Part shown: in pieces, positions 25,446 to 43,118 of the stretch
Layout: each line of letters opens with the position of its first letter
How positions within the stretch are numbered: position 1 is the first letter of the stretch
Assembly (NCBI GenBank): GCA_024277135.1
Contig: JAJRVV010000103.1
Location: forward strand, 1,207-65,206
DNA from: Chloroflexota bacterium
GTDB lineage: Bacteria; Chloroflexota; Anaerolineae; Promineifilales; Promineifilaceae
Length of the DNA stretch: 64,000 nt
Direction of reading: 5' to 3'
Translations under genes and position numbers: made by a program
The notes under the pieces: generated by a model
What the model was told of the DNA's origin: nothing
Databases searched by the model: none
What the model saw: only the letters and a program-made list of their open reading frames with translations

Positions 25446-25463
25446 TTTTTCTCCTCGACACAA

Positions 25464-25496: not shown

Positions 25497-25514
25497 TGCA
25501 TTGGCCTCAATTAT

Positions 25515-26024: not shown

Positions 26025-26262
26025 TTCCAGCCTGATTTTTTGCCTGGAGACTGTTCTTGCTACAGGATAGACGCGGCTGGCACAACCCGCCTTACCTCTG
26101 CCCGCCGCCCGCCATTTGGAACGTTATCTGGAGATCGCGCGAATCTGTCAAAACGAAAAACGTAAAACGAATGGCTGTGATGAAAAGGTATTGCGTTTTA
26201 CGTTTTGCGGCAAATTCCCAAAGCTAAAATTTGGGGTCAGACCGTTTAGATGGATTGGCTGT

Positions 26263-27171
26263 TTACCACCACGTCTGAAACGACACCGTATCCGCGCCCA
26301 CCAGCCGGTCGCCGGGGGCGTAGACGTTAATCTCCAGATCCACCTGAACGCCCGGCGGCACATCGGTCATGTCCAGCGGCGCGTGTACCCAGCTTTCCTC
26401 CTGGGTGACGCCTAAATCCAGCAGCCGCTCCTCTGCCCCAAAGCGCATCACCGCTTCCACGCGCAAATCAGATACCGATTCGCCCCCGTCCTGGTTGATG
26501 ATTTTGATGGTGAGGGTTTGCTCATCCCCGCTATACAGCACCGGCGCCCGCACAGACGCATACACGTCAACGGCCGTCACATTCACCGCCGGCACCACGA
26601 TATTGTCTCGAATGTCGGGCAAAACCACCGCCATCTTGTCGGCAAAATGGGCCGCGCCCAACTGCCCCGGCAACGCCCGGCTTCCTTGTGGCAGTTCAGG
26701 ATACCAGTCCAAACGGCCGTTGCGAAAATACTGCACTGCCCGCTCCCCTTCCAAAATCACCGGCGAAATGGCCGGGCCAAACAGGATCGCTCCCTGATGC
26801 TCGGCGTAAAACGCATTGAACGCCGCTTGAATCGCTTCGGCGTCTTCGGGAACCGGCATATTGTTCACATCCGGCGCGATTTCTGCGCCCAGCGCCGAAA
26901 CCAACACGGCCCCGCTGTCCGGCTCTAATTCCAGCCGCAGATTTTCAAAGTATTGTAGCAGACGGCCGTCATCCGGGGCCGGAAAAGCGGGTTCCAACAC
27001 GTCGCCAAAAACGGCGCGGCCGCCCATCTCCTCATAAAAGGCGCGAAACGGCTCGGCCACCGGAAGGGCAGCGGGGTCGCTGGCGGGGCCGGGTGTTGGC
27101 GCGCAGGCCGCCAGCCAGAACAGGAAAAGGATGAAGGATGAAGGATGAAGGATGAATTGAGACGTTCTCAT
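26263..27171 (-). CDS. hypothetical lipoprotein
   Basis: Start set to MRTSQFILHPSSFILFLFWLAAC (lipobox) at 27171, which avoids overlap with rsgA. The signal-peptide core is encoded by the GAAGGAT repeat (27127-27156). Confidence 0.6.
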   Translation of the reverse strand: MRTSQFILHPSSFILFLFWLAACAPTPGPASDPAALPVAEPFRAFYEEMGGRAVFGDVLEPAFPAPDDGRLLQYFENLRLELEPDSGAVLVSALGAEIAPDVNNMPVPEDAEAIQAAFNAFYAEHQGAILFGPAISPVILEGERAVQYFRNGRLDWYPELPQGSRALPGQLGAAHFADKMAVVLPDIRDNIVVPAVNVTAVDVYASVRAPVLYSGDEQTLTIKIINQDGGESVSDLRVEAVMRFGAEERLLDLGVTQEESWVHAPLDMTDVPPGVQVDLEINVYAPGDRLVGADTVSFQTWW

Positions 27172-27181
27172 CAACAAATTC

Positions 27182-28216
27182 TCAGGCGCGACGGCCGTAC
27201 ATCTCATGTTCCAATGTCTCATGATCTTCCCGCAATCGGAGATAACTGTCATAGCGGGCGGGGGAGATACGGCCGTCGGCCGCCGCTGCTCGCACCGCGC
27301 ATTTCGGTTCATGCCGGTGGCTGCAATCATTAAATTGGCACATCGGCACCAACGGCGCTATTTCCCGAAAATAGCCGTCCAATTCAGTCGGCTCCACATC
27401 AAACAGGGCCAGCCCGCGAATGCCCGGCGTATCCACCACATAACCGCCCATTTCCAGCGGAATCATCTCGGCAAACCGGGTGGTGTGCATCCCCTTGCCG
27501 GTGGCCTCGCTCACTTCACGCACCTTCAAGCCCAATCCCGGCTGGACAGCGTTGAGCAGGCTCGATTTGCCTACGCCCGACGACCCGGCCAGCACCGAAA
27601 TTTTGCCGCGCAACCGCTGCCGCAGGTCGGCCACACCGTCACCTTCGCTGGCGCTGGTATAAATGACAGCGTATCCAATTTTCTCGTAAATTTGAAACAG
27701 GTCACGGGCGGCATCTTGCCCCGTCAGATCAGTTTTATTGGCGCAAATGATGGCTGGTAGTTCATTCATTTCGGCCACCACCAAAAATCGATCCAGTTTG
27801 CGTAAACTGGGGGTCGGATTTTTGACAGAAAACACAAACACCACCTGGTCTGGATTAGCCACCAGCACTTGTTCCTGGTCGCGGGAAGCCTGCCGGGTAT
27901 CTTCGGCGCGGGTGCGGGTGCGGGAAAGAGCCGCGCGCCGTTCGGCCACCGACTCAATTTGCCCAGACCCATCTGCTAACAAAGAAAGCGTGACCTGATC
28001 CCCCACGGCAACCAACGTGGTGCGCTGCCATTCCCGCTTCAACCGCCCCGGCACCTGGGCCACAATCTGGCCCTGGGGCGTTTCTACTGTATAAAAGCCG
28101 CTGATTGCCTTGATGACAATCCCTTCCAGTTTCTTGTCCAGATTCGTTTGCCCCACTTTTAGAAATCTGATTTCTGGGAGAAATCGGATTTCTTGGTTCA
28201 ATGGATTATAACGCAA
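27182..28216 (-). CDS. rsgA: ribosome small-subunit-dependent GTPase A
   Basis: Circularly permuted GTPase: NKTDL before GSSGVGKSSLLNAV. Zn finger CQFNDCSHRHEPKCAV. Confidence 0.85.
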   Translation of the reverse strand: MRYNPLNQEIRFLPEIRFLKVGQTNLDKKLEGIVIKAISGFYTVETPQGQIVAQVPGRLKREWQRTTLVAVGDQVTLSLLADGSGQIESVAERRAALSRTRTRAEDTRQASRDQEQVLVANPDQVVFVFSVKNPTPSLRKLDRFLVVAEMNELPAIICANKTDLTGQDAARDLFQIYEKIGYAVIYTSASEGDGVADLRQRLRGKISVLAGSSGVGKSSLLNAVQPGLGLKVREVSEATGKGMHTTRFAEMIPLEMGGYVVDTPGIRGLALFDVEPTELDGYFREIAPLVPMCQFNDCSHRHEPKCAVRAAAADGRISPARYDSYLRLREDHETLEHEMYGRRA

Positions 28217-28248
28217 AGGGGAAGGTTAAGTGAAGCGGCCGCCAGGAA

Positions 28249-28347
28249 GCGAATGAATTCGCGGCCACAACTGCGAAACCGGCCTGCGCCGGTTAGCGAT
28301 CAGTCGGCGAAGGCCGACTTGGCAACCGTAGCCGCAGATTCATCTGC
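28249..28347. repeat. array of four short perfect hairpins
   Basis: GCGAAT ga ATTCGC (28249-62), AACCGGC ctgc GCCGGTT (28277-94), AGTCGGC gaag GCCGACT (28302-19), GCAGAT tc ATCTGC (28334-47). Same tandem-hairpin style as the core of the MITE-like element. Confidence 0.6.
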
Positions 28348-28374
28348 CGTGTTGTTAAAGCAGATGAAACACAC

Positions 28375-29385
28375 CTATTTGATGAGCGGTGTATTGGGGA
28401 TCGGGACTTTTATAAGAGAGGGTTTGGCGAACAGCGTCGAGTACTCTTCTTGAGCGGCAAGCAGGAGTGATTCATCAATGTCCCAGATGCGGATCATCTT
28501 TTCGTTGTGCCCTTGGGTCGCCAACACCGGCGCGGCGGGATGGAAGGCCAGGCTGGCAAAGGAAAAGCCGGAGTGGGGTTCGGTCAGGACGCCGGCCGGT
28601 TGCCAGGTATCAGTGTGCCATAAAATCACCTGGCCGTCGGCCGATTTGGAAGCTAGGAAACGGCCGTTGCCGGCGAAGGAGAGACTGGTGATCGCTTTGC
28701 TATGGGTAGATAAAACGTGGCAGCGGCTGCCCGAAGCCATCTCCCATAAATAAATGGAACCATCATCACCGGCTGAGGCTAAAATTTGCCCGTCGGGAGA
28801 GAGGGCTAACGTCAACACTTCATTCGTGTGGCCGGTGAGGGCGCGGTAATGTTGCATCTCCGGCAATGCCCAAAAGCGGACGGTGCGGTCGCCGGCGCCA
28901 GAAATGGCAAACTGCCCATCGGGGGTGATGATGATGCTGTTGACCCGCCCCCAATGGCCGCGAAAAGTGTGCAGTTCCCGATTAGTCTCCAAATTCCACA
29001 CTTTCACGCTTTGGTCATAGCCGCCGGAAACGGCCAGACGGCCGTCTGGCGAAATAGCCACTGCATACACATAATCTCTGTGTCCTACCAGGGTGACAGG
29101 CCGCCGGTTAGAAGTCAGGCTCCAATACTTGAGGTTGTTTTTGGAGGCGGACAGGGCAAAGCGGCCGTCGGGCGCGATGGTGACGGCGAAAACGGAGCTA
29201 TTGTGACCAGGGATGGTTCGCTTAATGTCGCCCGTTTCCGGGTTCCAGATGCGAATGGTCTGATCATAACTGGCGGTAGCTAAAGTACGGCCGTCCGGCG
29301 ACCAAGCCATCCGGGTAAACGGCCGGTTGCCCGCGCGCAACGTATGCCGCAGCTTAAATCCTGGGGGTATTTTTTTTCCGCGCAT
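28375..29385 (-). CDS. stand-alone WD40 beta-propeller protein
   Basis: Seven to eight repeats of GH..xV.AVaiSPDGr.a.Sgs.DxtvkvW type. Confidence 0.8.
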   Translation of the reverse strand: MRGKKIPPGFKLRHTLRAGNRPFTRMAWSPDGRTLATASYDQTIRIWNPETGDIKRTIPGHNSSVFAVTIAPDGRFALSASKNNLKYWSLTSNRRPVTLVGHRDYVYAVAISPDGRLAVSGGYDQSVKVWNLETNRELHTFRGHWGRVNSIIITPDGQFAISGAGDRTVRFWALPEMQHYRALTGHTNEVLTLALSPDGQILASAGDDGSIYLWEMASGSRCHVLSTHSKAITSLSFAGNGRFLASKSADGQVILWHTDTWQPAGVLTEPHSGFSFASLAFHPAAPVLATQGHNEKMIRIWDIDESLLLAAQEEYSTLFAKPSLIKVPIPNTPLIK

Positions 29386-30620: not shown

Positions 30621-33600
30621 TTATCGTGACAAAAAGCTTAAATCACAGCCTTGTTTTTCAGCGGCTGCTGTCAGGCTGTCGCGTATTTCACTTAGAGGAA
30701 TATGCAGTAAAGTTAGCAAAGAAAGCATCTTTTCATATCTGGATGCCACCAACGCCGTATCCGGCCAATACTTTTGAAAATGAACGATCGCAGCAGAAAA
30801 ATGGTTGGCGCATTCTCTGATAGCTTGATGTTTTTTGGCGTCCGTTAAATGCCCCTGTTTGATCTCAGATATATTCCACATTGCCTGCTGCCAGCCGATC
30901 TTGCCCAGAACAAACCAGTAGGCATCGCCCTGTTCCAACGGGCCGCGCGCCGCCAAATAATCTGAAACCAGCTTGTTTGCCATGTCCAATGAAGATGCTA
31001 CTGATTGGGGGTTGCCCTGACTAACCGCAATTTGGGCCAAATCATCATGGGTATCCGCCAACTGAAAGAGTAGATTATGTTCCTCGGCTATTTCTAACGC
31101 TTGATGGTAATATGCTTGCGCCTGGTCATATTTTTGTCCGGATAACTCTTGATCCACCGCTTGCGCGCAATCGCCCCAATCCCGATAGGCGCTTCCCATC
31201 TCATTGAACGCTTCCCACAATCGAATGGGTTCGTCTACTGTCTGGGAAAATATGGAGACCGATCTCTCAAGGGAGAGAATGGCGGATTGATAACTTGGCG
31301 CAACGGTTTCCAAAGCCATCCCGTCAGCAAACAATGAAGCCCCTTTCTGACGGCGACCCCACCCCAACGCATTGTACGCTAACCCGGTTCCTCTATCTGA
31401 ATTCATTTCGGCAAAGATGTTGAAAGCGGTCTGGCAGTCTCGAATCCCTGGCTCAATTTGCCCGCGAAGTATCTGAATGAGGCCCCTGGTATTGAGGCTG
31501 AGCGCGATGGGATAGCTCTGGCCTAATTCTTGGCGAAGGGTTAAGGCGCGGTTGACTTGGGCAAACGCTTCATCTACTAAACCGAGGCTGGCTTGCACGA
31601 ATGACATGTTGTTCAGGGTATTGGCTTGTTCGTCTTTGACTTCCGCGTTTTCATAATGAAAAAGCGCGTGTTCGTACTGCTCTAACGCTTTGCCGTAACG
31701 GCCGTTGCTGCGCAAGAGGTAACCTAAACGATCATAAGCGCGACCAAGACTCCGTTCCTGTATCCACGAGAGAGAAGATTCATTTTTAAATGGCAGTTGG
31801 TGCAATAATTTTGCCGCATTTTCCAGTATCGCCTGAGTAGAAAAATTAAGTTCGCCAACATAAACCAATGTTTCCCCATACAGGCTAAGAAACTGTCCCC
31901 AAAAGAATTCATCTTCCAGAGAAAACAAGGCGCGCGCTTGTTGTTCTTCATCAGCAGACAAATCTCGTGGTTCAGATACCCGGTTGCGCATCTTCTGATA
32001 TTGATCCGGACTGAATTCAACAATGGTCTCAGAGATTTCTAACGCATTTTGGTATTGAGCCTGAATTAGGTAACGTTTAACCCACCTTAAAGCGCTGTCT
32101 CGTTCTACATCTTCGAGGAATAATCCTACTTCTTCAAGGTAATCCTGATTGAACGCGGAACGGATAAAACGCAAGATTTCATTCCGCAGCTGCATATCAA
32201 GACCAATTTCCAAGCCGCGTATCGCTTCTTCATCCCAACGCATGTAATGTTTTTCAAAGGCTGATTTGGGGTTTAATCGCAGCTCGTAGTAAAACAACTT
32301 GGTAACAGTTTGTATCCAGATTGTCCGTTCCCCATTGGTCCGCGCTAAACAAGAGCGGTAATAATCAGCAATGCGTTCATACCAGGGCAGCAGTTGGCTG
32401 CGAGGCGGCGAGTATTGATCAAACAGCTCGTACAAAGCGTCATGCAAAAATAGTTCGTTATGGGAACGGCTCTTGACCACGCCCAGCCCGGATGCTTCTG
32501 ATAAATTGGCGCTGCACTCTTCTTTTGACCAGGCAGGTTCCAAGTAGTGCAAGAGTTCGGGGGTCAGCCCCTTGCGGGCCAGCGCTAGAAAAAAGAAGGT
32601 GCGGGAGGCTGGATCAGCATAGTTAAATAAACTGGCGACTATACTTTCGCCGATATTTGACGAATCTGTAATATCTTTCAGCATGCCAAATTGCTTGGCT
32701 TGCTTTAATATCTCGACGACGAGCGTGAGAATCACTGGATTTCCCTGAGTTTCCCGCCACAATTTATCAGATTTATCCAGATGGGTTACTAACTCCGGCG
32801 TGTCTGCCAGTAATGTTTGCAACAAATCACGGCTCTCTTTTCGCGTTAACGGCCGTACCATGATGCTCTCTACCAGACTGGCATTATCTTCTCTTAATTT
32901 GTCTAAATCTTGCTGCAAAACGGGATCAGGTCGTCCCGCCAACAAGATAACGCTGTTTTCAAAATGTTCAAGCTTTTGCAGCAGCCAATCACGAACCGCC
33001 ACTGACATGCTCTTAATTTGACAAATGGACTGGATTAACTCAGATTCAAAAGCTAATGTTTCTGCGGTATCCAAGGCGATTACCAGGCGATTTTGCTGCC
33101 GGGAAAATGCGCGCAAGTTTTCAATAAATAGTGTGTCCAATTCTTGTTGAACCGCTGGCGCGCTGCTTCGCCCTTGCAGACGCATTTCCTCAAACTGCGC
33201 TCGCGCCGAAATATACTCTTGGAAGAAACGATTATCCGGGTCTAATTTTTCTGCAATTGCGTCTTGAAATTCAAGGACGTCATGTAAATCGGCGTGGTAA
33301 AGATCGTATAACCCGCCCCAGTACGGCCGTTTCCTTGAAGAAGTTTTCTGGATAACCTTCTCGACTTCCTCAATCAACCTCGTTTTGCCGATGCCGCCCG
33401 GCCCATAAAAATACAAGATACGGGTTGTCCCTGCCTCATTGATAGCGCTGTCAATCGCTTCCATCTCTTTCTTGCGGTTAACAAAATCGGGGCGACGAAC
33501 GGATGCGTGGTGCCATGACCAGGAGGGTAAACGCAGGTTGGGTTTGTTTTTTAGACTCTCAGGCAGTTTCTTAAGGGACGTTTTGAGCAACTGCTCCAAA

Positions 33601-33635
33601 ATGATCTCAGCAATAACTGATAATAGAAAGTTCAT
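30621..33635 (-). CDS. STAND (NB-ARC-like) NTPase with long C-terminal TPR array, paralogue 1
   Basis: Walker A YFYGPGGIGKTRLIEEV; Walker B LVIALDTAE. More than 400 aa of TPR-like repeats. GGGAGA RBS. Shares blocks with 35582-38665 (LFYELRLNP, ALRWVKRYL, DEPIRLWEAFNEMGSAYRDW). Confidence 0.8.
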   Translation of the reverse strand: MNFLLSVIAEIILEQLLKTSLKKLPESLKNKPNLRLPSWSWHHASVRRPDFVNRKKEMEAIDSAINEAGTTRILYFYGPGGIGKTRLIEEVEKVIQKTSSRKRPYWGGLYDLYHADLHDVLEFQDAIAEKLDPDNRFFQEYISARAQFEEMRLQGRSSAPAVQQELDTLFIENLRAFSRQQNRLVIALDTAETLAFESELIQSICQIKSMSVAVRDWLLQKLEHFENSVILLAGRPDPVLQQDLDKLREDNASLVESIMVRPLTRKESRDLLQTLLADTPELVTHLDKSDKLWRETQGNPVILTLVVEILKQAKQFGMLKDITDSSNIGESIVASLFNYADPASRTFFFLALARKGLTPELLHYLEPAWSKEECSANLSEASGLGVVKSRSHNELFLHDALYELFDQYSPPRSQLLPWYERIADYYRSCLARTNGERTIWIQTVTKLFYYELRLNPKSAFEKHYMRWDEEAIRGLEIGLDMQLRNEILRFIRSAFNQDYLEEVGLFLEDVERDSALRWVKRYLIQAQYQNALEISETIVEFSPDQYQKMRNRVSEPRDLSADEEQQARALFSLEDEFFWGQFLSLYGETLVYVGELNFSTQAILENAAKLLHQLPFKNESSLSWIQERSLGRAYDRLGYLLRSNGRYGKALEQYEHALFHYENAEVKDEQANTLNNMSFVQASLGLVDEAFAQVNRALTLRQELGQSYPIALSLNTRGLIQILRGQIEPGIRDCQTAFNIFAEMNSDRGTGLAYNALGWGRRQKGASLFADGMALETVAPSYQSAILSLERSVSIFSQTVDEPIRLWEAFNEMGSAYRDWGDCAQAVDQELSGQKYDQAQAYYHQALEIAEEHNLLFQLADTHDDLAQIAVSQGNPQSVASSLDMANKLVSDYLAARGPLEQGDAYWFVLGKIGWQQAMWNISEIKQGHLTDAKKHQAIRECANHFSAAIVHFQKYWPDTALVASRYEKMLSLLTLLHIPLSEIRDSLTAAAEKQGCDLSFLSR

Positions 33636-33699
33636 GATCTCCCTCGCCGATACTTAACGGATTATGCTGTGTGGCGCACTCTCGTATCTTTTGTCAGTT

Positions 33700-35286
33700 T
33701 CAAATGATGGGCGTTAATTGGCCGTTTGCTTTTAACGCCTGCAATCCCTGCAAACGCAACAGTTCAGGAAGCAATGTTTTGTAAATGCGGCAGTGGGGGC
33801 TTTTGACATCCCAACGGCCGGCGGCCCGAACCGTTTCCAGCGGGCAGCCGCCAGTACACCGATAACGAAAGGCGCAATCACGGCATCCCTCTTTCTCATC
33901 CACCGCCAAATTGTGTATTTTTTGCCGGCGGCCGGGCGCTAACAAATCGTCCGGGAGCGGGGTGGAGGTTTGCAGGCGCATGTGACATTCCGCCAATTGG
34001 CCGGTGTGGGTGATGACGACGTAGTTCTGCCCCACGCCGCAGGTGTGGGTGTGCGCCGCCGCCTGCACTCGATCCAGCAGCCCGCCCAGAATGGGTTCAT
34101 CAGGTAATGCCTGCTTAATAACGGCGTAGGCCGCTTTTAGCCCGGTAATGATGGCTTCTTCTTCCAGCGCCAATTCTTGTCTTGAGGCAGACAGCAGGTT
34201 TTGCCGGTACAGGTTGAAGTTGACGGGAAGCTGCCGCTCTATGATGGCCCATCGGGCCAGGCCGGCGGCGCCGTGGGCATTGGCGCGGGTGATGGTCATG
34301 GTGATGTGGGGGCGAACGGCGTGGGGCAAGAGCAAGCGGTCAATTGTGTGGGCAACCCGGTCAAATGTGCCGCCGCCTCCTTTGCGCGGCCGCAGCCGGT
34401 CGTGCAGTTCGCCCACGCCGTCCAGCGACACCATGAGCCGAATGTTGTTTTCTTTGATCCAGGTTACATCATCGGGGCGCAGATTTACGCCGTTGGTTAA
34501 GATGACGGCCGTCAACCTGATTCCTGTCTCCTGCGCTTTTTGCCGCGCCAGCCGGTGCAGTTGGCGAATCATGTTAAAGTGCAGGGTGGCTTCGCCGCCG
34601 GCGTATTTTAGTTTGACTTGAGACAAGTTGTGACGGACGGCCGTGTTAAATACCGCCTCAATCGCCTTCTTCCCCGTTTCCTCACTCATCCGCGCCGATG
34701 ATTTACGCACGTAGCAGTAGGGGCACTCCAGGTTGCAGGCATTGGTCACGTGCAGCCAGACCGTCAGCGTCTGCGGTTGGGGCTGCCGCCATCTTATCTG
34801 CGTTCCGGCCGGCTGAATGAGGCGCTGCCGGGCGAATTCATGGTCAATGGCGGCCGTCAGCGGGCGCGGCTGGGCAAAAGCGCGCCACCGCTCCCAGGCG
34901 GCCCGGTTCAACAGCGCCGCCCCGCCCGGCGCAAAAGGACTTAAGGCTAGGTGAAAATCTGGCGAGAGTTTTAGCAAAAACGGGTTGGGCGTCTGGCGGT
35001 AGTGGGTGGAGTGGGGTGTGACGGCCGTCTGCGCCGACAATGGCGCAACGGCGCAGGCGCAATCATTTTCACCGCCAGCTTCTTCCGCAACCAGAGAGGC
35101 GGGGGCGCAGGCGCAATCATCTTCGCCCGCGCCCGCCGCATAAAACTGAACGGGGGCGTCCGGCGCAAAACAATCATCCTCCCCGGCCGAAGATACAAAA
35201 AAGCGAACCGGCGCATCTGGCGCATAACAATCATTTTCTCCGGCGGGCGGAGCTAAAATAAAGATGAGTGGGGTATTCGGGGACAT
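33700..35286 (-). CDS. radical SAM / SPASM-domain enzyme with N-terminal tandem Cys-repeat extension
   Basis: CNLECPYC (CX3CX2C). SPASM Cys cluster CGVGQNY...ECH...CRDCAFRYRCTGGCPLE...SPHCRIY. GAGGAG RBS. Residues 15-86 form four repeats of AG(E/G)(E/N/D)DC. Confidence 0.85.
   Translation of the reverse strand: MSPNTPLIFILAPPAGENDCYAPDAPVRFFVSSAGEDDCFAPDAPVQFYAAGAGEDDCACAPASLVAEEAGGENDCACAVAPLSAQTAVTPHSTHYRQTPNPFLLKLSPDFHLALSPFAPGGAALLNRAAWERWRAFAQPRPLTAAIDHEFARQRLIQPAGTQIRWRQPQPQTLTVWLHVTNACNLECPYCYVRKSSARMSEETGKKAIEAVFNTAVRHNLSQVKLKYAGGEATLHFNMIRQLHRLARQKAQETGIRLTAVILTNGVNLRPDDVTWIKENNIRLMVSLDGVGELHDRLRPRKGGGGTFDRVAHTIDRLLLPHAVRPHITMTITRANAHGAAGLARWAIIERQLPVNFNLYRQNLLSASRQELALEEEAIITGLKAAYAVIKQALPDEPILGGLLDRVQAAAHTHTCGVGQNYVVITHTGQLAECHMRLQTSTPLPDDLLAPGRRQKIHNLAVDEKEGCRDCAFRYRCTGGCPLETVRAAGRWDVKSPHCRIYKTLLPELLRLQGLQALKANGQLTPII
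35029..35244 (-). repeat. in-frame tandem coding repeats (4 units of 17-19 codons) at the 5' end of the radical SAM gene
   Basis: AGENDCYAPDAPVRFFVSS / AGEDDCFAPDAPVQFYAAG / AGEDDCACAPASLVAEE / AGGENDCACAVAPLSAQ. The DNA units ggcgcaggcgcaatcat... recur four times. Confidence 0.85.
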
Positions 35287-35492
35287 GCTAACTCCTCGCT
35301 AGAAGCCAGCAATATGACAGATCGCCGTTCAATTCCTCACAAACGAAATTTTTGTTGGTTATCTTGATAGGCTAAACTCTGGCACGCTGGCATGGTTTTG
35401 CTCCATTATTCACGATGAATTGACGCCTCCATATCTTAGCAGTCAAAATAACCCTTGTCCAGACCCTCTCAGATTTTTTGTATTTTGGCAGC

Positions 35493-35533
35493 AACAAAAA
35501 ACCACACTTTGACAAATTCCCGCCAAAGTGTGG
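35493..35533 (-). terminator. intrinsic terminator after the upstream STAND-TPR gene
   Basis: Minus strand CCACACTTTG gcgggaatttgt CAAAGTGTGG TTTTTTGTTGC, 49 nt after the stop at 35582. Confidence 0.75.
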
Positions 35534-35581
35534 CTAATTGCTCTTACACGCTGCGTTCAGGAGCGTTGTTTAATGAGGCTG

Positions 35582-38500
35582 CTAAAACATCACAGTTCTA
35601 TCAATCAAGTTACGTAATTCCGGCAGTTGAATATCGTACTTTGTTTCGATTGACTCCACCTGCGCTTTAGCCCATGTTGCCGGCTCTTGGGTTCGGGGTA
35701 AATAATCTCCGAGCTGCGGCAGATAGTTGGTTAAGTACCCCATCGTGCGGTCATAATCGAAAGATGTGGGCCAGTATTGGCGGAAATAGATGCTGGACAG
35801 GAAAAGGTTTGCCATGGCTTCTTTTAACCGGCTCTCCGTTTCCCCTTCCGCTGCTTGTTTATATTCCACATCCCGGAAGCGCCAAACGCCGCGCCACAGA
35901 TGCAATTTGCCCATCGCCACCCATTGGGCTTCGCCTTCACCGGTCTCCGAATCAAAGCCGCCAACCGCAAGTTTGAATTTAGCGTCAATGGAACCATCCA
36001 CCTCAATCAGATACCGCTCTGCCTGCTGCCGGTCGCGGCGCGCCGTTTCGATATCATCCATTTCAATGTTAAGGGTACTGCGGTCGCCATACGCTTGCGC
36101 CAAATCATCCAGAGAATCCCAAGTTTGAGATTCTAAATCATGCTCATCAGCTAATTTTCTGGCCTGTTCCTGGTAACTGATAGATTGGTCGTAATAGGCT
36201 AAAGCCTGGGAACGATCATTCAGCCGCGAACGCATCAGCCAGGCCCAGTCACAGTAGAGGCTGCCCAATTCATTGTTTGCCTCCCACAACCTGATAGGTT
36301 CGTCAAATGCAGAGAAAATATCTACGGCTTCATTAAGCGTCTTTGCCGCTTGCTGGAAAATCGAGTTTGCTTCTTTTGCGCTGATGCCGCCGAATTTCCA
36401 TTGGTTGGCCTGTTTGCGTAAGGAGTAGCCAAGCCCAATAAGGGCCATACCGATACCTCGGTCATCCCCAATCGCCTTTACAGTTTCCAGCGCTTCATGG
36501 CACTCCTTAACTCCCCAGTTTGGATGATTATCAAGGGTGTATATGATACCCAGGGTATTCAACGCCAATGCCAACGGGTAATCTCGTTTTGACTCTCGAT
36601 TGAGTTCGATTGCTCGTGAGATGAGACGAAACGCTTCCGTCGGGCGCGCATTAAGTCCCAGCAAGTAGGCGGTGTTTGTTAATGCAAAGGTTAACTCGCT
36701 CTTAACATCAGCCCGGCTGAAATGGGCAACCGCTTGTTGGTAATGGGACAAAGCCAGACCATACCTGCCTGTTGTGCGATAGAAATAGCCCAAACGATTG
36801 TGGGCCGCGCCTGAAATGCGATGGTAATGCCATTGTTGAGCTTTATCCAGGCTGCTTTGGTTTCCTTTTGCTTTCAAAATATTGATGGCATATTCGAGAA
36901 AGTCGGGGACATCTTTGAAAGCTAACTGTAATTTCTGGTTCAATACGGCCGCAGCTGATTTGATGTGCGCCGCTTCCTGAACGGCCGCCTCCACCAACGC
37001 CACCAGCAAATCCGCCTTGTAAAAATCGTCGTCAATTTTATTCCAATCGAATAATGGATCTTCACTGGCAATTAAATCCAGGGCGACTTCGCGGGCCGTT
37101 TGTGAATCGCCCCGGGCCCAATGACGGCGCACCCAGCGCACGGCGCAATCCCGATCAACGCTGTCTCTATCTAATCGGTTGGCGATCAGTGCGTCATAAA
37201 ACTTAGATTGAGGATCCACATACCGGTTCAAAAAGCCCAACACTTCGTTACGCAGGCGCATGTCATAACTATGCTCATGCACTTGAATCGCATCATGATC
37301 CTGCCAGGCATAATGAAAGTGATACCCCTGGTATGGGTTGACGCGCAACTCATAAAAAAGGCTGTCAACGGCTAATTTTTCTGGTGACGGGCCAGATTTG
37401 TCTTGTAATTTTTGGCGGTAGTATTCGACAAATGGTTGGTACTCTATGGATTCAGACGCGGCCCCCCTAAAGTATTGATCATACATGTTATAAAGTTCAT
37501 CGTGGAAGAAGAAAGTTTTGTGGGAATTCTGGGAGTCGCCTGCCTGCCGCACCTTGACAATGGCTAATTTCTCCAACCAGTTTAATAGGGAATCAATATC
37601 TTTCTCTTCTTCTCCTAGGTATGTCAGCAGTTCAGCATCTAACCCTTTGCGCGCTCTGAATAAGTTTTGGATGATACGGCCGTGCGGGTCTGGCAATCTC
37701 CGTAAATCATCAATCAATTGTTCGGCCAACTTGTCTTCCGGGAATTCACGACCAGCCAAAATATCATTGACAAATTGTTTGCTGCCTTCCGATTGAGTCA
37801 AGAAAAGGTCAACGATCAACGCCAGGTAAACGGGACGGCCGGCAGCCACCCGGTGACAGTGCGCGTCCAAATTTTCATACTCGCCCAGAATTTCGTCCAG
37901 GCTGGCGTCACCCTGTTCTTTTAGTTTTTTGGATATCTCATTCAGATATTCGCTAGTTTCCTCCGGGGAAAACGCCTTCAATTCTTCTGCGTCGAATGTG
38001 TTGTCTTTTGCGTGGAACCGTTTAGTAAAGGTTGTTTCAATCCGTTCTCGATTCTGCGGCCGGCCGGCCATCAAAATGACTGTATTCGGCAAAGCCGGCA
38101 GCTGCTCCACCAGCCAGTTCATCACCAACGCATCTACTGTTTCTACCTGACAGATTTTTTGCACTGGATCACTTTCATGCTGCATCAATTCCATCGTGTC
38201 CAGGCGAATCACCAGCCGATGCTTTTGCGCCAGTGTCCGGTAGTCGTTTAGGAATGCTGTCTCCGTCTCGTCTTGCAGCCGCTGCAATTCTCCGCTGGAA
38301 GCGCCGGCCGTCTGCTTTTCTATCAACTCTTTCCGTTTGGCGTAATATTCCCGGAAATCATTCGACTCTTCCTCCTCCAATCCGGCGACAATGCCATGAC
38401 GGATGCCGTCGCTGCTTTGATAATCGGAGTGGTACATATCCAGAATGTCAGTACAGCGGAAAGAAAGCCCTCTCCATTTGCCTTCTTCAGTCGCCACATC

Positions 38501-38665
38501 TTCCAGCAAACGGGTTTTGCCAATGCCGCCAGGGCCATGAAAATAGAGCAGCCAGGTGCGGCCTTCATCTTTGAGGGCATTATAAATTGCTGCTAATGGT
38601 TTCTTGCGGCCAATGATTTTTTCAGTGCGTCGAGAGGGCGTTTGGTCGTGAGCAGAGGGGGACAT
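35582..38665 (-). CDS. STAND (NB-ARC-like) NTPase with long C-terminal TPR array, paralogue 2
   Basis: Walker A YFHGPGGIGKTRLLEDV; Walker B LVIRLDTME; TPR-like C-terminal half; AAGGAG RBS. Confidence 0.8.
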   Translation of the reverse strand: MSPSAHDQTPSRRTEKIIGRKKPLAAIYNALKDEGRTWLLYFHGPGGIGKTRLLEDVATEEGKWRGLSFRCTDILDMYHSDYQSSDGIRHGIVAGLEEEESNDFREYYAKRKELIEKQTAGASSGELQRLQDETETAFLNDYRTLAQKHRLVIRLDTMELMQHESDPVQKICQVETVDALVMNWLVEQLPALPNTVILMAGRPQNRERIETTFTKRFHAKDNTFDAEELKAFSPEETSEYLNEISKKLKEQGDASLDEILGEYENLDAHCHRVAAGRPVYLALIVDLFLTQSEGSKQFVNDILAGREFPEDKLAEQLIDDLRRLPDPHGRIIQNLFRARKGLDAELLTYLGEEEKDIDSLLNWLEKLAIVKVRQAGDSQNSHKTFFFHDELYNMYDQYFRGAASESIEYQPFVEYYRQKLQDKSGPSPEKLAVDSLFYELRVNPYQGYHFHYAWQDHDAIQVHEHSYDMRLRNEVLGFLNRYVDPQSKFYDALIANRLDRDSVDRDCAVRWVRRHWARGDSQTAREVALDLIASEDPLFDWNKIDDDFYKADLLVALVEAAVQEAAHIKSAAAVLNQKLQLAFKDVPDFLEYAINILKAKGNQSSLDKAQQWHYHRISGAAHNRLGYFYRTTGRYGLALSHYQQAVAHFSRADVKSELTFALTNTAYLLGLNARPTEAFRLISRAIELNRESKRDYPLALALNTLGIIYTLDNHPNWGVKECHEALETVKAIGDDRGIGMALIGLGYSLRKQANQWKFGGISAKEANSIFQQAAKTLNEAVDIFSAFDEPIRLWEANNELGSLYCDWAWLMRSRLNDRSQALAYYDQSISYQEQARKLADEHDLESQTWDSLDDLAQAYGDRSTLNIEMDDIETARRDRQQAERYLIEVDGSIDAKFKLAVGGFDSETGEGEAQWVAMGKLHLWRGVWRFRDVEYKQAAEGETESRLKEAMANLFLSSIYFRQYWPTSFDYDRTMGYLTNYLPQLGDYLPRTQEPATWAKAQVESIETKYDIQLPELRNLIDRTVMF

Positions 38666-38732
38666 GAGGCTCTCCTTATCATCTGTTTTTATGCGCGGGC
38701 AAGAGATATGCCGGCCGATCGAACGTGACTTG

Positions 38733-40187
38733 TTAATGGGGAACGGGTATTTCTCTGCCCTCGGCCAGGGCGCTGGCTAATTGATTTGCCAATATAGCAA
38801 AAAGTGGTTCCGGAAGCAACTCTCTCAATTCTTCATCTGATTCAAATTGATTGTACAGGGTGTTGGCTCTATCAAAGCTGAGGTTTTCTAAGGCAAAGGT
38901 GAGGCTCTGTTTCAGTTGGTCTTCTAATTTTTCCGCATCCCCCTCTAAACTGTAGATACTGGCTTGATGGAGCCACGTTTCCAGGATGAAATCTTCGCTG
39001 GCTTCAGGGTACTCGTTAATCCAGCTTTCATACATCTCTATCGCTTGCCGGTGCTGCTGGATGAAACGGCCGGGGTCGGCCAACATTTGTTGTTGGTTGA
39101 GCAGGGAGCGGACGATGCGGCTGGTGGTGTAGGCGCGGCGTTCCCGGTTCCACCAGACGTATTCGGTGTTTTGTTCCAGAGCGCGGATGAGTTTGAGGTA
39201 GTAGTTGTACGGCCGTTCCTCCTCCCCTTGCAATTGGAGCGTGTGCCGAACCCCTTCCAGCCGATAGTAACGCAAAACTGAAACCGCTTTTAACACCTTA
39301 ATCAACCGGTCAGGCACGTCCTCAAACAAATAATCAACCGCTGCTTGATAAACAGGAGGTAAAATCTCTGACTGATGCTGTTTCCAGATTGCGGCCGTGA
39401 GCGGAACTTCCCCAAGCCGCCGCTCGCTTTCTACCAGCAGCTCTTTGGCAATGAGCGGGCTGGTGGCTGACCATTTATAAATATCATCAACATCTATGGA
39501 GCGGCCGGATAGCCGGTTGATTTGCTCCTGAATATTCTCTTTCGTAAAACCATTGAGACGGCTTAATTCCAGAGGCGCTACCCGTCGTCTCGTCTCAAAG
39601 CGAACCCATTCGGGGATCGGCCGTCGCCCGGCGATGACGAAAACAATGCGGTTGGTCATTGCCAATGGTTCGATGAATGATTTTTCCAGATTTGCCCAAT
39701 CATCAAATGCCGATTCTGCTTGATCCAGGAGGATAACCGGCGCAAAACGATGGGAAAGAGTTTTTAAGAGTTCGACCAAAGCTGCGATCGTCTTGTTTTT
39801 ATCAGCCTGTTTATAGGCAGACTGTTCATGAGGCAAGAATTTTTTTTGTAATCGTTCTTCAATTTGCTCCAGACAAGCAGAAATGAACGCTTTATAATCA
39901 ATCTGTCCACTCTTCTCTTTGGGAAATCGGTGAAAAAGGGAAAACGTTGGGGCCGGAGCCAGTTTGTCTGGGAGGGAACCGTCATATTGATACAACTGCC
40001 TTAAGTGAGAGATGAACCACGATTTGCCAATGCCGCGCACCACCCAAATGTTAACAATTGGCGACTCCGCGATGCCCCCTGACTGGATTTGTTTTACCAT
40101 GCCCGATATCCAGCGCAGGCGTTTCTCTCGATTGACAAATAAACTTAGACGATACGGTTCTTCTGCCTCAAACATACTGGCCATCAT
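38733..40187 (-). CDS. short STAND-type P-loop NTPase
   Basis: FVNREKRL...IWVVRGIGKSWFISHL (P-loop), VILLDQAE (Walker B), VFVIAGRRP, helical C-terminus. Start set to the ATG at 40187, 14 nt after the upstream stop; the track start at 40235 would overlap that gene. Confidence 0.7.
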   Translation of the reverse strand: MMASMFEAEEPYRLSLFVNREKRLRWISGMVKQIQSGGIAESPIVNIWVVRGIGKSWFISHLRQLYQYDGSLPDKLAPAPTFSLFHRFPKEKSGQIDYKAFISACLEQIEERLQKKFLPHEQSAYKQADKNKTIAALVELLKTLSHRFAPVILLDQAESAFDDWANLEKSFIEPLAMTNRIVFVIAGRRPIPEWVRFETRRRVAPLELSRLNGFTKENIQEQINRLSGRSIDVDDIYKWSATSPLIAKELLVESERRLGEVPLTAAIWKQHQSEILPPVYQAAVDYLFEDVPDRLIKVLKAVSVLRYYRLEGVRHTLQLQGEEERPYNYYLKLIRALEQNTEYVWWNRERRAYTTSRIVRSLLNQQQMLADPGRFIQQHRQAIEMYESWINEYPEASEDFILETWLHQASIYSLEGDAEKLEDQLKQSLTFALENLSFDRANTLYNQFESDEELRELLPEPLFAILANQLASALAEGREIPVPH

Positions 40188-40201
40188 GATACCCTTTGTG
40201 A

Positions 40202-41329
40202 TTATTGATGAACACTTTGGTGGAATTTCTCCCAATCTTCTGGGGAGATACGGCCGTTACGAAACGCTGATTGACTGACCAATTGACTGGTTAATTGCAA
40301 GAGTGTGCGAGGTGGCCCCAAATATGGGTGGCTAAGAGCCATCTTGGTAAGCTCTTTTTCAACTTTCACACGCGCTGATAATTCTTGAGAACATAAATCT
40401 TCTACTCGCTGATAAAGCGATGGTTGATCAAACTGCTTGCTGGCCCATTTGAGCCGCGAGTTTAAAAATTGAACAAGGCTTTCATGATCCCATTCTATGG
40501 GCACAGGATGTAAACGGCCGGTTCTGCATCCACTTGATTCCAACACAGTCGGTTCTAACAATTTTGGAAGAAAAAACTTCCAGACAACGCCTGGAATGGA
40601 TAACAAAGACAATCCATTTAGCAGTGGATTCACTAATGCTGTCATACTGGTGAAATCTACAAACTCGTTTAAGCCATCCACGCCATCTATCAATATAAAT
40701 AGGCGGGAGATTCCTAATGGATGAATATGTTCTCTTATGTTATTGAGGGCGCGAGCAAGGGGAGTATTACTTTGAATTGGAGACCCAATGTAATCCGTTT
40801 CAAGATAGTTCAATTCACTTCTAAGATCATCATCGAGTTCAAATTGCAGATCATATCCTAAATAAGCCTTAATAAAAGCCCAACACCACCTGCGATCAGC
40901 CAGGGGCATATCTTTATCTTCCAAAAACCGTTCTTTGTTATGCGGTTGCTTGATATAGCAAAGCAGCGCTTTGGCAACACAAGCCATCAAAGGCTTAAAA
41001 TGATCGGATGTTTTAATATTCGGTAATTTCTGTATGATTAACTCAAAACTATCGTATGTGACAACTAACCAATCTGGACGCAACTTCAGCTTTTGAGCAA
41101 AGCGCAGCCGGTGGGCTGTTTTACCCCCACCCCGTTCAGCCAACAACACGGCCGATTTCTCTAAATTTTGAATTTGGTCAAACCCGGGATGTTCCACAAA
41201 AAGCCTTTCCCACAACCCTGCATCATCAGGCATTTTTTCAGCTTCTGCGTAACCAAATGGGTCATAAATAAACCCCAACCCTTGTAAATGTGGCGGCGGG
41301 TTGGGTAATTTAACGCTGCGTTTGGTCAC
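40202..41329 (-). CDS. P-loop NTPase, paralogue of the N-terminal 370 aa of 41547-43118
   Basis: LQGLGFIYDPFGYAEAE...LLAERGGGKTAHRLRF (Walker A), LFILIDGVDGLNE (Walker B). GTG start. Confidence 0.7.
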   Translation of the reverse strand: MTKRSVKLPNPPPHLQGLGFIYDPFGYAEAEKMPDDAGLWERLFVEHPGFDQIQNLEKSAVLLAERGGGKTAHRLRFAQKLKLRPDWLVVTYDSFELIIQKLPNIKTSDHFKPLMACVAKALLCYIKQPHNKERFLEDKDMPLADRRWCWAFIKAYLGYDLQFELDDDLRSELNYLETDYIGSPIQSNTPLARALNNIREHIHPLGISRLFILIDGVDGLNEFVDFTSMTALVNPLLNGLSLLSIPGVVWKFFLPKLLEPTVLESSGCRTGRLHPVPIEWDHESLVQFLNSRLKWASKQFDQPSLYQRVEDLCSQELSARVKVEKELTKMALSHPYLGPPRTLLQLTSQLVSQSAFRNGRISPEDWEKFHQSVHQ

Positions 41330-41467
41330 TGCTGAGAACCTTGTTTGTTACCTATGATCTGGAAAATCACACACGATTGGTTACGTCTCCAGTGTTGGCG
41401 TTTGCAATTGTAACGGACTATACATAAATGTAACCGCATCACCATACGCCATTGTAAACATTAGTGA

Positions 41468-41508
41468 TGGACAATTGCTGGACAAATCTCTCCCAATTGT
41501 TGGACAAT
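41468..41508 (-). promoter_or_regulatory. three direct repeats TGGACAA(T/A) phased 11 and 22 bp apart (candidate wHTH operator)
   Basis: Copies at 41468, 41479 and 41501 (plus strand; TTGTCCA on the gene strand), in the 217-nt gap upstream of 40202-41329. TGTCCATCAC also occurs at 43241-43250. Confidence 0.4.
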
Positions 41509-41546
41509 TTGCAGACAGATATTGCCCTATTTCTGACTCCTTACAA

Positions 41547-43118
41547 TCATGCAGCGTAGTTTTTTAGAATAAATCCCGAACCCCGATGGGTCTCAATGTA
41601 GTTTTGTAACTGGCCGCTATCGCCGACTTTTTTGCGGAGGCGGCCGATATTGCGATCTATCGTCTCCTCGCTGACGCCATCCTTGCTTCCCCACACTTTT
41701 TCAGCTAATTCGTCCCGCTCACAAAACCCATCATTTTCTATCAATGCCTTCACTATCTTCCATTGGATAGGCGTCAATTTGATTGGTTTGTCTCCCAACC
41801 AGATTAGATGCTTGTTTATTTGCACGCGGAGTATTGGGATACCTTCAGGTGCAATCGCTTCTGCTGCGTCCGGTTCTGGTTGAGCAGGTATGACGGCCGT
41901 CCTCCTCACATCCCCCAATTCTCCCTCTACCGCCTTCCAATCCGCCATCGTCAAAAAGCCGGATGTCCCGGCGCGCCGTACATGCGCTTCACACAACTGC
42001 TGCATCGTTAACAAAAGCTGACGCGGGGATACGGCCGTACAAACCCCCGCCTCAATCTCCTCCGCCACCCCCTTACTCCGACAAATCTGCCCCAAATCCG
42101 TTACATCCTGCCGGCTAAAAACCCCCATCCGTTCATTCAGCAGCCGTACCAGACGCCCTCTATCCCAACTCAACTGAGCCATCTTTATCCGAACCCTATC
42201 CAGCCGCAGCCAATCCCGCGCTTCCAACACATCCCGCACCATATCAGGCAAGAAAAACTTGAACGCCACCCCTCGTTTCTCCAACAAAGGCAAATGCCCC
42301 AAAATCGGGTGCAGCAATTCCGCCTGTAGCTGCGGATCATTCATCGTTTCCGGGATCTCATCCACCCGATCAACTAAAAAGAAAACCGACCGGAGACCTG
42401 CATCCCGGCACAAACCAACAAACAGTTCAAGTTGCCGCGCCGGTCTTAAAGGAACCGCATCCGGCAGACCAAAATCATTCAACTCCGCCAACAACCTGGC
42501 CTGGGTCTGCTCCGTCACCTGAAGAACAAGGGGGGCCAAAGATTTACTTCCTGCCCGCTGCCTAAACTCCGCCCAACTCACACCCATGGCAGCTAAAGAA
42601 ATATCCGGCGACATCCCACTCAAGCGGGTTAACAAAGCGTCAGGCGACCACAAAAGCGGCGCGCGCGCGTGTAAAAATTGCGCCAGGTTGATTTTTACCG
42701 GTTCCGGCATACTTACCCCTGGCTTTGCCAGGAGATATGAAAGCAGTGTGTTTGCGCCAATTTCAAGCAAAGCCTGAATTGCCGACTCGCTGTTAAGCGT
42801 TCCCTGCCGATGATGTGCCAACAAGCCGTCAAAATCAGTGAATTCCACAGACAAAACAGGTTGGGACATCTCTTTAGGCGCTGTTTTGTCCGCCAGCATC
42901 ATCCGCAAAGCCGTCTTACCCCCGCCGCGCGGCGCAAAAATGATAATACCCCCCTCTCCCCTTATTTCGTCAATCTCCGGCACATCCACAAAGAAGCGAG
43001 GCAGCAGTTCCCGCTCTTGCTCCGCCTCCACACTGGCAAAAGGATTGCCCATATGAAACCCCAGGCCCTCAAGCCATTCATCAACCTTCTTGTTCAAATC
43101 AGGGGATTGGTTCGTCAT
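41547..43118 (-). CDS. P-loop NTPase fused to a C-terminal OmpR/PhoB-type winged-helix DNA-binding domain
   Basis: LEGLGFHMGNPFASVEAE...IFAPRGGGKTALRMM (Walker A), VFFLVDRVDEIPE (Walker B). C-terminal LTPIQWKIVKALIENDGFCERDELAEKVWG...IDRNIGRLRKKV...IETHRGSGFIL. GGGAGA RBS. Confidence 0.75.
   Translation of the reverse strand: MTNQSPDLNKKVDEWLEGLGFHMGNPFASVEAEQERELLPRFFVDVPEIDEIRGEGGIIIFAPRGGGKTALRMMLADKTAPKEMSQPVLSVEFTDFDGLLAHHRQGTLNSESAIQALLEIGANTLLSYLLAKPGVSMPEPVKINLAQFLHARAPLLWSPDALLTRLSGMSPDISLAAMGVSWAEFRQRAGSKSLAPLVLQVTEQTQARLLAELNDFGLPDAVPLRPARQLELFVGLCRDAGLRSVFFLVDRVDEIPETMNDPQLQAELLHPILGHLPLLEKRGVAFKFFLPDMVRDVLEARDWLRLDRVRIKMAQLSWDRGRLVRLLNERMGVFSRQDVTDLGQICRSKGVAEEIEAGVCTAVSPRQLLLTMQQLCEAHVRRAGTSGFLTMADWKAVEGELGDVRRTAVIPAQPEPDAAEAIAPEGIPILRVQINKHLIWLGDKPIKLTPIQWKIVKALIENDGFCERDELAEKVWGSKDGVSEETIDRNIGRLRKKVGDSGQLQNYIETHRGSGFILKNYAA

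Follow-up and report, generated by a model that had tools for sequence, protein, structure and literature searches.

Radical S-adenosylmethionine (SAM) enzymes of the SPASM class that mature peptides are known to act on separately encoded substrates. One of them, QhpD, makes Cys-to-Asp/Glu thioethers in a polypeptide that is retained in a protein complex and not secreted. The modifying enzyme and its core peptide or peptides are parts of one polypeptide in the fungal borosin OphMA and in the plant BURP-domain cyclases, and where BURP cyclases are fused, the catalytic domain is preceded on its N-terminal side by several core repeats and the reaction proceeds stoichiometrically. PapB closes repeated Cys-X3-Asp units of its substrate into thioethers, linking Cys to Asp/Glu and tolerating spacings of 0-6 (PMC9413430), and in PapB and Tte1186 the substrate Cys or SeCys binds the iron of an auxiliary cluster (PMC10177961). 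Passages of Kaur et al. (2020; PMC7159879) describe radical SAM-SPASM peptide modules that occur together with AP-ATPase/TPR proteins in multicellular bacteria, for which a peptide toxin or signal was proposed. Here we analyze a stretch of 64,000 nucleotides (the window; positions 1,207 to 65,206 of contig JAJRVV010000103.1, assembly GCA_024277135.1, Chloroflexota) that encodes a 528-residue radical SAM/SPASM protein with four Cys-containing units in its residues 1-86. From sequence comparison we propose, with a probability of about 0.68, that these residues are a precursor of the RiPP type (peptides made by the ribosome and modified after translation), fused in frame to its own maturase. A fused substrate array at the N-terminus of the maturase had been suggested in an earlier note on this DNA, and the suggestion is now supported comparatively, by a module that is universal in the family, by its variable copy number, and by a related system in which peptide and enzyme are split.

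The array of the window protein comprises four units in which E/D-D/N-D-C motifs start at residues 17, 36, 55, and 73. Translation of the open reading frame (ORF) places the Cys residues at 20, 39, 58/60, and 76/78, as the earlier note had it, and the interval given there for the array, 35029-35286, is exactly residues 1-86; the strong GAGGAG ribosome-binding site reported ahead of the first Met does lie 5 nt upstream of the ATG. The repeats as first delimited were right as to the four acidic-Cys units but not as to the register, which we correct to P-hydrophobic strand-x6-E[DN]DC. Read in this way (PLIFIL..ENDC, PVRFFV..EDDC, PVQFYA..EDDC, and PASLVA..ENDC, with periods of 19, 19, and 18 residues), every Cys motif has its own short hydrophobic strand before it. 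Four or more motifs did not appear in any of 200,000 shuffles of residues 1-95, the maximum being two. Tandem Repeats Finder detected no DNA-level tandem repeat in the array, and units 1 and 2 agree at 39 of 54 bases and the other pairs at only 23-34 of 54, so that the repeat is kept at the level of the protein. In the family alignment units 3 and 4 are the canonical pair and units 1 and 2 (CYAPD and CFAPD) are a clade-specific insertion. The tail matches no Pfam or NCBIfam precursor or domain model, even at E≤10. An in-frame TAG five codons upstream makes Met1 the earliest possible start.

The remainder of the protein is, judged from profile matches and conserved Cys motifs, a SPASM radical SAM enzyme of the peptide-maturase type. 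The C184-x3-C188-x2-C191 motif, which begins 98 residues beyond the array, is invariant in alignments of 60 and of 70 homologues, and residues 180-318 match the Pfam Radical_SAM family (PF04055, E 6e-13, above the cut-off). The SPASM pattern is present as C416-x12-G-x4-C434, C468-x2-C471-x5-C477-x3-C481, and C499, and these Cys are invariant in the 60 homologues; the conserved SPASM Cys of the family thus number seven, not eight. The Pfam SPASM model itself is not among the matches of the window protein at E<0.01, and the alignments to SPASM-family models of NCBIfam extend through residue 490. The best models in NCBIfam are all for SPASM peptide maturases, namely those for the nif11-peptide radical SAM enzyme (TIGR04064, 136.9 bits against a cut-off of 518.7), PapB (NF047865, 130.8 against 340, over residues 176-490), QhpD (TIGR03906, third best, 114 against 453), and the SCIFF maturase (TIGR03974, 112.7 against 425); since all four scores are under their cut-offs, the window protein lies outside these equivalog families. 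Among solved structures, its best matches by sequence profile and by fold are to CteB, which is the SCIFF thioether synthase, and to TigE, anSME, ChlB, and SkfB. CteB is the best of them by sequence profile (5wgg, E 1e-29), and Foldseek aligned the window model with CteB 5why over 459 columns (E 7e-14), CteB being 421 residues long.

The tail is a constant feature of the family to which the window protein belongs. A protein search gave 1,097 relatives at E≤1e-10, the best 120 of which are 50-77% identical and mostly 490-497 residues long; 79 genomic loci from named organisms were also compared, and statistics on copy number and position were drawn from 179 full-length sequences. At the starts of the best 120 of the 1,097 a pattern of P-I-L-L-T-G, DDDCACPD-KAF.L.F, about 10 residues, and xDCACPD is nearly universal, and the same tail is found in the 79 loci, which come from Chloroflexota, Leptolyngbya, Adonisia, Nostoc, Thiotrichaceae, Blastocatellia, Actinomycetota, Chloroflexus, and Roseiflexus, with DCDCAC or CDCDCDCAC variants in distant members. 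The module, a P-[ILV]-[ILV]-L-T-G strand followed by 1-5 copies of [DE][DN]D-C-A-C-P-D, is present in all 179 full-length homologues and is not the low-complexity linker that had been considered as an alternative at the outset. The first motif Cys lies at about residue 21 in 178 of the 179 (median position 21), is preceded by D in 97%, and stands behind the fixed positions P(-14), [LIV](-13), [LIV](-12), L(-11), T(-10), G(-9), D(-3), D(-2), and D(-1). Copy number does vary, as had been entertained: one, two, three, four, and five Cys clusters occur in 23, 115, 27, 12, and 2 proteins, respectively, at a median spacing of 22 residues, and even among closest relatives the number differs, with four units in the window protein and three in P0002-P0004, which are 71% identical. 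The Cys per unit range from 1 to 5, units 1 and 2 of the window protein and those of whole clades (DCAP.., DCR..) having a single Cys. C-X3-[DE] is found in 198 of 261 strict units (76%) and, in the window protein, in units 1 and 2 alone; Asp(-1) and the first Cys are what is truly universal, usually together with A-C-P. Homologues use different synonymous codons for the D, C, and A of the motif.

No stop codon separates the repeats from the enzyme, either in the window ORF, as previously claimed, or in any complete locus. Six-frame translation of 1.37 Mb of flanking DNA gave five occurrences of the motif outside the called N-termini of radical SAM proteins, of which one is a frameshifted N-terminus (L016), another a match standing alone in a frame of 33 codons (L036), and the other three come from a small ORF inside the operon that is described below. 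Homologues that at first appeared to lack the tail (P0107, P0072, and P0005) were considered as natural splits and rejected, as they are artefacts of start-codon choice or contig ends with the motif in frame upstream; public annotation begins P0107 (413 aa) and P0072 (418 aa) at a downstream Met.

The same motif also occurs on separate peptides. An exhaustive HMMER search with the tail profile (A4) against 1.84 billion representatives returned 25 proteins at E≤1e-3, and besides N-terminal fragments of radical SAM proteins these include the standalone peptides P0137 (116 aa, four copies of DCACPDGAKVI, E 5e-14) and P0144-P0146 (three or four copies of [NQS]DCACP). P0137 is encoded at 697-1047 of L090, 50 nt 5' of a gene for a 479-residue radical SAM enzyme at 1098-2537, and P0145 15 nt 5' of another radical SAM gene. 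The enzyme of this split family, which comprises 45 clusters, including a Pseudomonadales metagenome-assembled genome and Candidatus Chisholmbacteria, has no N-terminal Cys motif and no fused tail. It aligns with the window family from the last strand of the RiPP recognition element (RRE) to the C-terminus (BLASTP E 1e-16; hhalign probability 99.9, E 1e-32, 396 columns) and retains three auxiliary-cluster Cys alone, the equivalents of C416, C434, and C481. When metagenomic loci were retrieved by means of the split enzyme alone, small ORFs with D/H-C-A-C(-P) were directly upstream in seven of the eight that had upstream DNA, with one to three ORFs per locus, each of 28-90 residues and with the motif followed by a hydrophobic stretch. 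This is the layout of a classical precursor plus maturase with the same motif, and it provides the strongest available evidence that the fused tail would be a precursor. That the repeat module might be split off as a small gene elsewhere had been raised before, and it is borne out both by these D-C-A-C-P peptides upstream of a tail-less RRE-radical SAM enzyme and by an ORF of 66-78 residues in a sub-clade of the fused family. Several of the small ORFs of the split systems are not called as genes, for example one of 36 residues in L098/L104, and some of the precursors end in a conserved I-R-V-x-V-V-x-P segment. Four other matches to the tail profile (P0140, P0150, P0154, and P0157) are long ORFs of regular repeats (HDGACPRRALLLAS, QDCGCPDAVGKM, LDCACPSGAFLSEV) that resemble translated repetitive DNA.

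The ORF of 66-78 residues is separate from the enzyme gene and lies between two duplicated STAND/TPR genes upstream of it. It forms 12 clusters (P0121-P0132), begins MDTMVLLVGDSRRYEDDDCAC, is further represented by the sequence MDTMVLLVGDSRRYEDDDCACSHNLAGVPKQV, and repeats the 'strand + EDDDCAC' module; either of the two Cys is replaced (by F, Y, or G) in three of the 12 sequences. The ORF has its own Shine-Dalgarno sequence, a TATAAT-like, promoter-like box, and an upstream terminator hairpin. A profile of its N-terminus is colinear over the first 21 positions with residues 1-21 of several of the radical SAM enzymes and with the first motif of others, and among 1,365 proteins it matched nothing besides the radical SAM enzymes.

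Two independent AlphaFold2 models, one of the window protein (mean predicted local distance difference test score, pLDDT, of 77.9) and one of the canonical two-unit homologue P0022, agree in their treatment of the tail. Residues 1-10 are confident in both (pLDDT 88 in the window protein and 86 in P0022), with a β-strand at 8-10, and the Cys units score below 50 in both, which means that they are predicted to be disordered. High confidence for such a short terminal strand implies packing against the folded body. The RRE-like region is modelled as strands 103-108, 111-115, and 124-127 and helices 128-138 and 146-153 at a pLDDT of about 90, and this order of strands and then helices at about residues 95-160, ahead of the catalytic barrel, is consistent with an RRE, although PqqD/RRE sequence models do not match the window protein. 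The GPSVLN edge strand of this domain would be the obvious partner of the N-terminal strand. As to whether the repeats come to the active site, a structural check put forward in the earlier note, the N-terminal strand is confidently placed but the Cys units are not seen to reach it.

Based on these comparisons and the predicted structures, we now put forward a hypothetical mechanism for the self-modification of the window protein. The domain order, with a leader-like strand and core repeats, fits the definition of a RiPP precursor, and in the homologous split system the precursors are separate. From the N-terminus the protein would present the leader-like strand, the repeated acidic-Cys core units, the RRE, the radical SAM domain, and the SPASM domain. 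We propose that a hydrophobic strand (PLIFIL first, with one such strand per unit) docks on the edge strand of the RRE-like domain in the manner of a leader peptide, and that docking brings a flexible [DE][DN]D-C-x-x-P unit, as a loop, within the active site. There the open iron of auxiliary cluster I would be bound by the Cys thiolate, a nearby residue would lose a hydrogen to the 5'-deoxyadenosyl radical, and the resulting carbon radical would capture the sulfur to form an intramolecular thioether with the loss of 2 Da per unit. The likeliest acceptors would be the Asp at +4 (C-X3-D, as with PapB) or the near-universal Asp at -1. Each enzyme, or a neighbouring molecule in trans, would process its own 1-5 units, and the reaction would hence be stoichiometric and not catalytic. 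A Cys thioether would be the most likely product, although we put this specific chemistry at somewhat under an even chance, and other Cys-directed chemistry, such as an anSME-like oxidation, is also conceivable. Our inferences from the above concern docking, self-modification, the chemistry, and what becomes of the tail. With no protease or exporter in the cassette, the cyanobacterial trypsin-like domain apart, a cross-linked acidic tail is more likely to serve the neighbouring TPR-NTPase machinery as a tethered ligand or signal than to be a secreted product. It is possible, if doubtful, that the self-cross-linked tail is a single-use signal of a STAND system in filamentous bacteria that is read by the TPR of the adjacent NTPase (family F1) or is clipped off, in cyanobacteria by a STAND-trypsin protein; if so, a chemical mark that depends on redox state and SAM would feed into regulation or cell-fate decisions driven by the NTPase.

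Several points weigh against a fused precursor. Neither model places a Cys unit near the active site, and the pairing of strand 8-10 with the RRE-like domain is read from model confidence and secondary structure. Identity to the split family is only about 19%, its C-terminal domain is of a one-cluster (twitch-like) kind, and a closer sister group may exist. Window units 3 and 4 lack the Asp at +4, and it is not conserved in the peptides of the split family, most of which do without it; this weakens the case for the specific chemistry of PapB on C-X3-D. Typical RiPP cores are far less conserved than this motif, so that a cofactor-like or ligand role fits it better than a diversifying product, and acidic CxC clusters could be metal binders. 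A self-consuming, stoichiometric radical SAM enzyme is costly. Lastly, no conserved peptidase, exporter, or immunity gene was found in 84 loci, with the exception of a trypsin-like domain in cyanobacterial cassettes.

Clustering of the neighbour genes over the 84 loci gave a conserved cassette of F3 (about 700 aa, transmembrane and P-loop), two or three F2 P-loop paralogues (about 440 aa), F5 in some loci, F1 (about 1,000-1,250 aa, STAND and TPR), the radical SAM gene, and often a membrane/coiled-coil protein of about 200 aa. On gene order, the radical SAM gene is the terminal member of a conserved STAND/TPR NTPase operon. F1 is its most frequent partner, adjoining it in 73 of the 84 loci; the median distance from the end of F1 to the first Cys codon is 71 nt, enough for a leader segment of about 20 residues and no more. 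In most homologous loci the stop of the STAND gene abuts the start of the radical SAM gene, unlike in the window, where the order is F2 with a winged helix-turn-helix (wHTH) domain, F2, F5, F1, terminator and promoter, radical SAM, a second F1, and F25 (Table 1), and where the radical SAM gene seems, from these signals, to begin its own transcription unit. F25 corresponds in position to the transmembrane proteins of about 200 aa (F6, F10, F25) that follow the enzyme gene in other loci.

Table 1. Features of the radical SAM gene, its surroundings, and related loci (coordinates are those of the window unless a locus is named)
Feature	Coordinates	Strand	Proteins
Complete radical SAM/SPASM ORF, 528 aa: precursor-like tail, RRE-like, radical SAM, and SPASM domains	33700..35286	-	
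Precursor-like N-terminal array, residues 1-86, four units of hydrophobic strand-x6-E[DN]DC	35029..35286	-	
Leader-like strand PLIFIL, residues 6-11; matches family P-[ILV]-[ILV]-L-T-G	35254..35271	-	
Unit 1 motif ENDCYAPD (C20; C-X3-D)	35215..35238	-	
Unit 2 motif EDDCFAPD (C39; C-X3-D)	35158..35181	-	
Unit 3 motif EDDCACAP (C58, C60); aligns with first DDDCACPD of typical homologues	35101..35124	-	
Unit 4 motif ENDCACAV (C76, C78); aligns with second xDCACPD of typical homologues	35047..35070	-	
RRE-like peptide-binding domain, residues ~95-165, with GGAALLN version of near-invariant GPSVLN strand	34792..35004	-	
CX3CX2C radical SAM cluster motif CNLECPYC (C184, C188, C191)	34714..34737	-	
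SPASM region, seven invariant Cys (C416, C434, C468, C471, C477, C481, C499)	33790..34041	-	
GAGGAG ribosome-binding site, 5 nt 5' of ATG	35292..35297	-	
In-frame TAG, 5 codons 5' of Met1	35299..35301	-	
Promoter-like site TGGACA-17-TAAGAT, TG-extended, upstream of radical SAM gene	35433..35461	-	
Terminator-like hairpin, 16 bp, with T-run, after upstream STAND gene	35500..35535	-	
Upstream STAND NTPase + TPR protein, family F1, 1027 aa	35582..38665	-	
Second STAND NTPase + TPR protein, F1 paralogue, 1004 aa, 64 nt past radical SAM stop	30621..33635	-	
F5, 500 aa	38733..40235	-	
F2 P-loop protein, 375 aa	40202..41329	-	
F2 P-loop/ORC-Cdc6-like protein, C-terminal OmpR-type wHTH, 523 aa	41547..43118	-	
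F25 small membrane/coiled-coil protein, 193 aa	29751..30332	-	
66-78-aa ORF in fused-family operons	L071 ~6668-6880; L073 ~6672-6812; L078 ~6668-6898; L088 8001-8216; L089 8001-8216		
Split-system loci, small ORFs of 28-135 aa, 1-4 D-C-A-C-P units	L090 697-2537; L091 293-1183; L093-L099, just before the radical SAM match; L104 ~6890-7000		
Radical SAM genes annotated short, 82-85 open codons upstream with Cys module	L084/L085 3001-4242; L087 3001-4257		P0107, P0072

The cassettes of other lineages differ in part. In cyanobacteria F1 is followed by a STAND-trypsin fusion and a Trypco1 protein, after which comes the radical SAM gene. The STAND-trypsin fusion, which replaces F2/F3 in cyanobacterial and Blastocatellia cassettes (L031 7352-9900; L049, L061, L045, L051, L042), is on its domain content the only candidate protease for release of the tail, and the Trypco1 protein, of 119-123 aa, lies just before the enzyme gene in three Leptolyngbya-type loci (L031, L049, L061). 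The EAD7, iSTAND, and CHAT Pfam families, which belong to the conflict-system set of Kaur et al., occur in or near related loci, and the window cassette has no vWA-MoxR or GAP1 core. The split systems have no STAND+TPR gene nearby. They often have a divergent protein of about 360 aa with an OmpR-type wHTH like that of the 523-residue F2 protein of the window, and such proteins of about 360-395 aa flank split radical SAM genes (L096 1089-2174 and 5053-6240; L098 1622-2716; 35% identity over 74 aa). The wHTH common to the window cassette and the split loci hints at a shared transcriptional output, and the partners of the split systems show no similarity to the NTPases of the window besides it. 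PADLOC defence models gave a generic viperin-type radical SAM similarity alone and nothing for the partner proteins, and Rfam gave no credible riboswitch or RNA element in the 295-nt region upstream of the radical SAM gene. The STAND and P-loop genes of the cassette (30621..43118) have a G+C content of 0.43-0.53, compared with 0.60 for the radical SAM gene, and neighbouring housekeeping genes (24603..29385, 43952..46712) are also above the cassette at 0.56-0.62; the same tendency is seen in L006 and L009. A hydrophobic peptide of 53-55 residues with two transmembrane segments follows the radical SAM gene in some Chloroflexota loci (L001 11666-11833, L002 11659-11820) and is itself followed by an SPFH/Band-7-like gene, with a Band_7 Pfam match for L087 5812-6498; the window contains no counterpart of this peptide.

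Such a constant NTPase partner, usually abutting the start of the radical SAM gene, invites a different explanation, in which the tail is a docking or adaptor peptide for the TPR of the STAND NTPase, or a pseudo-substrate that blocks the RRE or active site of its own enzyme, and the real substrate is elsewhere. TPR domains commonly bind short acidic peptides, the operon holds no other conserved candidate substrate gene, protease, or exporter, and the N-terminal strand is predicted to be bound in cis. We nevertheless regard this as unlikely, as the split family has a peptide and an enzyme with no STAND+TPR gene nearby, and docking is in any case compatible with a fused precursor in that the modified tail could be the ligand. 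A matched-motif pairing of the EAD or amyloid-signalling kind was considered and rejected, the motif being absent from all neighbouring proteins. Less probable again is a metal, iron-sulfur, or redox tail, in which the acidic Cys and CxC clusters would hold an additional cluster, donate a cluster or sulfur, or bind Cu/Zn, for example, and would not be a substrate. Radical SAM enzymes often have additional cluster-binding segments, carboxylates flank the two Cys (C-A-C) of the typical unit, and with two units most of the proteins have four Cys. However, the units vary from 1 to 5 and the Cys per unit likewise, single-Cys units occur in the window protein and in whole clades, the region is predicted to be disordered, and the same motif is found as a multi-copy free peptide upstream of a radical SAM gene, which is the layout of a precursor and not of a cluster domain. 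That the repeats lie outside the protein, in a 5' leader or a separate small ORF with the true start downstream, can practically be discarded: NCBI and other gene callers do begin P0107 and P0072 at a later Met, but the frame upstream is open and encodes the motif at both loci, the motif is conserved across phyla with synonymous codon variation, there is no room between the upstream gene and the first Cys codon, no complete locus has a stop between array and enzyme, and the window gene has a strong Shine-Dalgarno sequence 5 nt before Met1.

The fused precursor thus remains our preferred reading, and if it is correct, a family of more than 1,000 proteins in several phyla would be the first fusion of a substrate into the enzyme for radical SAM chemistry. 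Neither the curated models nor the literature searched, the coverage of which is incomplete, held an example of a radical SAM-substrate fusion, and the same literature, with the same limit, gave nothing specific on the tail motif or on SPASM enzymes with STAND proteins in Chloroflexi. The D-C-A-C-P peptides are an undescribed class that occurs in both fused and split forms, and would amount to a new class of modification common to a fused enzyme and a split precursor/maturase system. Gene callers sometimes cut the tail or miss precursor ORFs of 28-90 residues, so that the class is invisible in current annotation. A compact single-gene system of this kind would lend itself to the study of leader recognition and of thioether or other Cys-directed radical chemistry, and it connects operons of STAND/TPR NTPases, typical of multicellular bacteria, with a radical enzyme that modifies peptides.

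In that last respect the window cassette resembles the FxSxx-COOH/HaaT-type systems as they appear in the passages of Kaur et al. (2020; PMC7159879), in which a SPASM radical SAM peptide-modification module is coupled to STAND+TPR NTPases in filamentous or multicellular bacteria. The cassette may belong with the NTP-dependent conflict systems of that paper, in that STAND+TPR proteins and several P-loop paralogues are present, EAD7 and Trypco1 matches occur in related loci, and the family extends over Chloroflexota, filamentous cyanobacteria, Thiotrichaceae, and others. In contrast, in the FxSxx-COOH/HaaT-type systems, as presented there, the precursors are separate and bear C-terminal motifs, and a zincin peptidase and vWA-MoxR cores are present; the window cassette has none of these, and the match of F1 to the HaaT model is weak and owed to the TPR repeats, at 37.6 bits where the cut-off is 1125. 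The radical SAM, SPASM, EAD7, and Chloroflexi passages and section 24 of that paper do not contain a cassette of the window type.

Among the maturases themselves, PapB with PapA (freyrasin) is alike in being a SPASM radical SAM peptide maturase with repeated Cys units, and 76% of the window-family units have its C-X3-[DE] spacing. PapA, however, is a separate gene, no counterpart of which is present at the window locus; the window family is marked by the Asp before the Cys and then by C-A-C-P, and the operon context is unrelated. CteB and Tte1186 (SCIFF) have the order predicted for the window protein, an N-terminal RRE (in the window protein an RRE-like domain) and then radical SAM and SPASM domains, but their precursor is a separate gene of about 45 codons with another Cys pattern. 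QhpC is likewise a subunit separate from QhpD, and no qhp genes are near the window radical SAM gene, the neighbours of which are STAND/TPR NTPases. For the principle of fusion, the closest functional analogues would be the OphMA-type borosins and the BURP cyclases. These differ from the window protein in being SAM-dependent N-methyltransferases or copper enzymes and in being eukaryotic, and if the N-terminal array is indeed the substrate of the enzyme that carries it, the window family would be a parallel to these fungal and plant autocatalytic enzymes.

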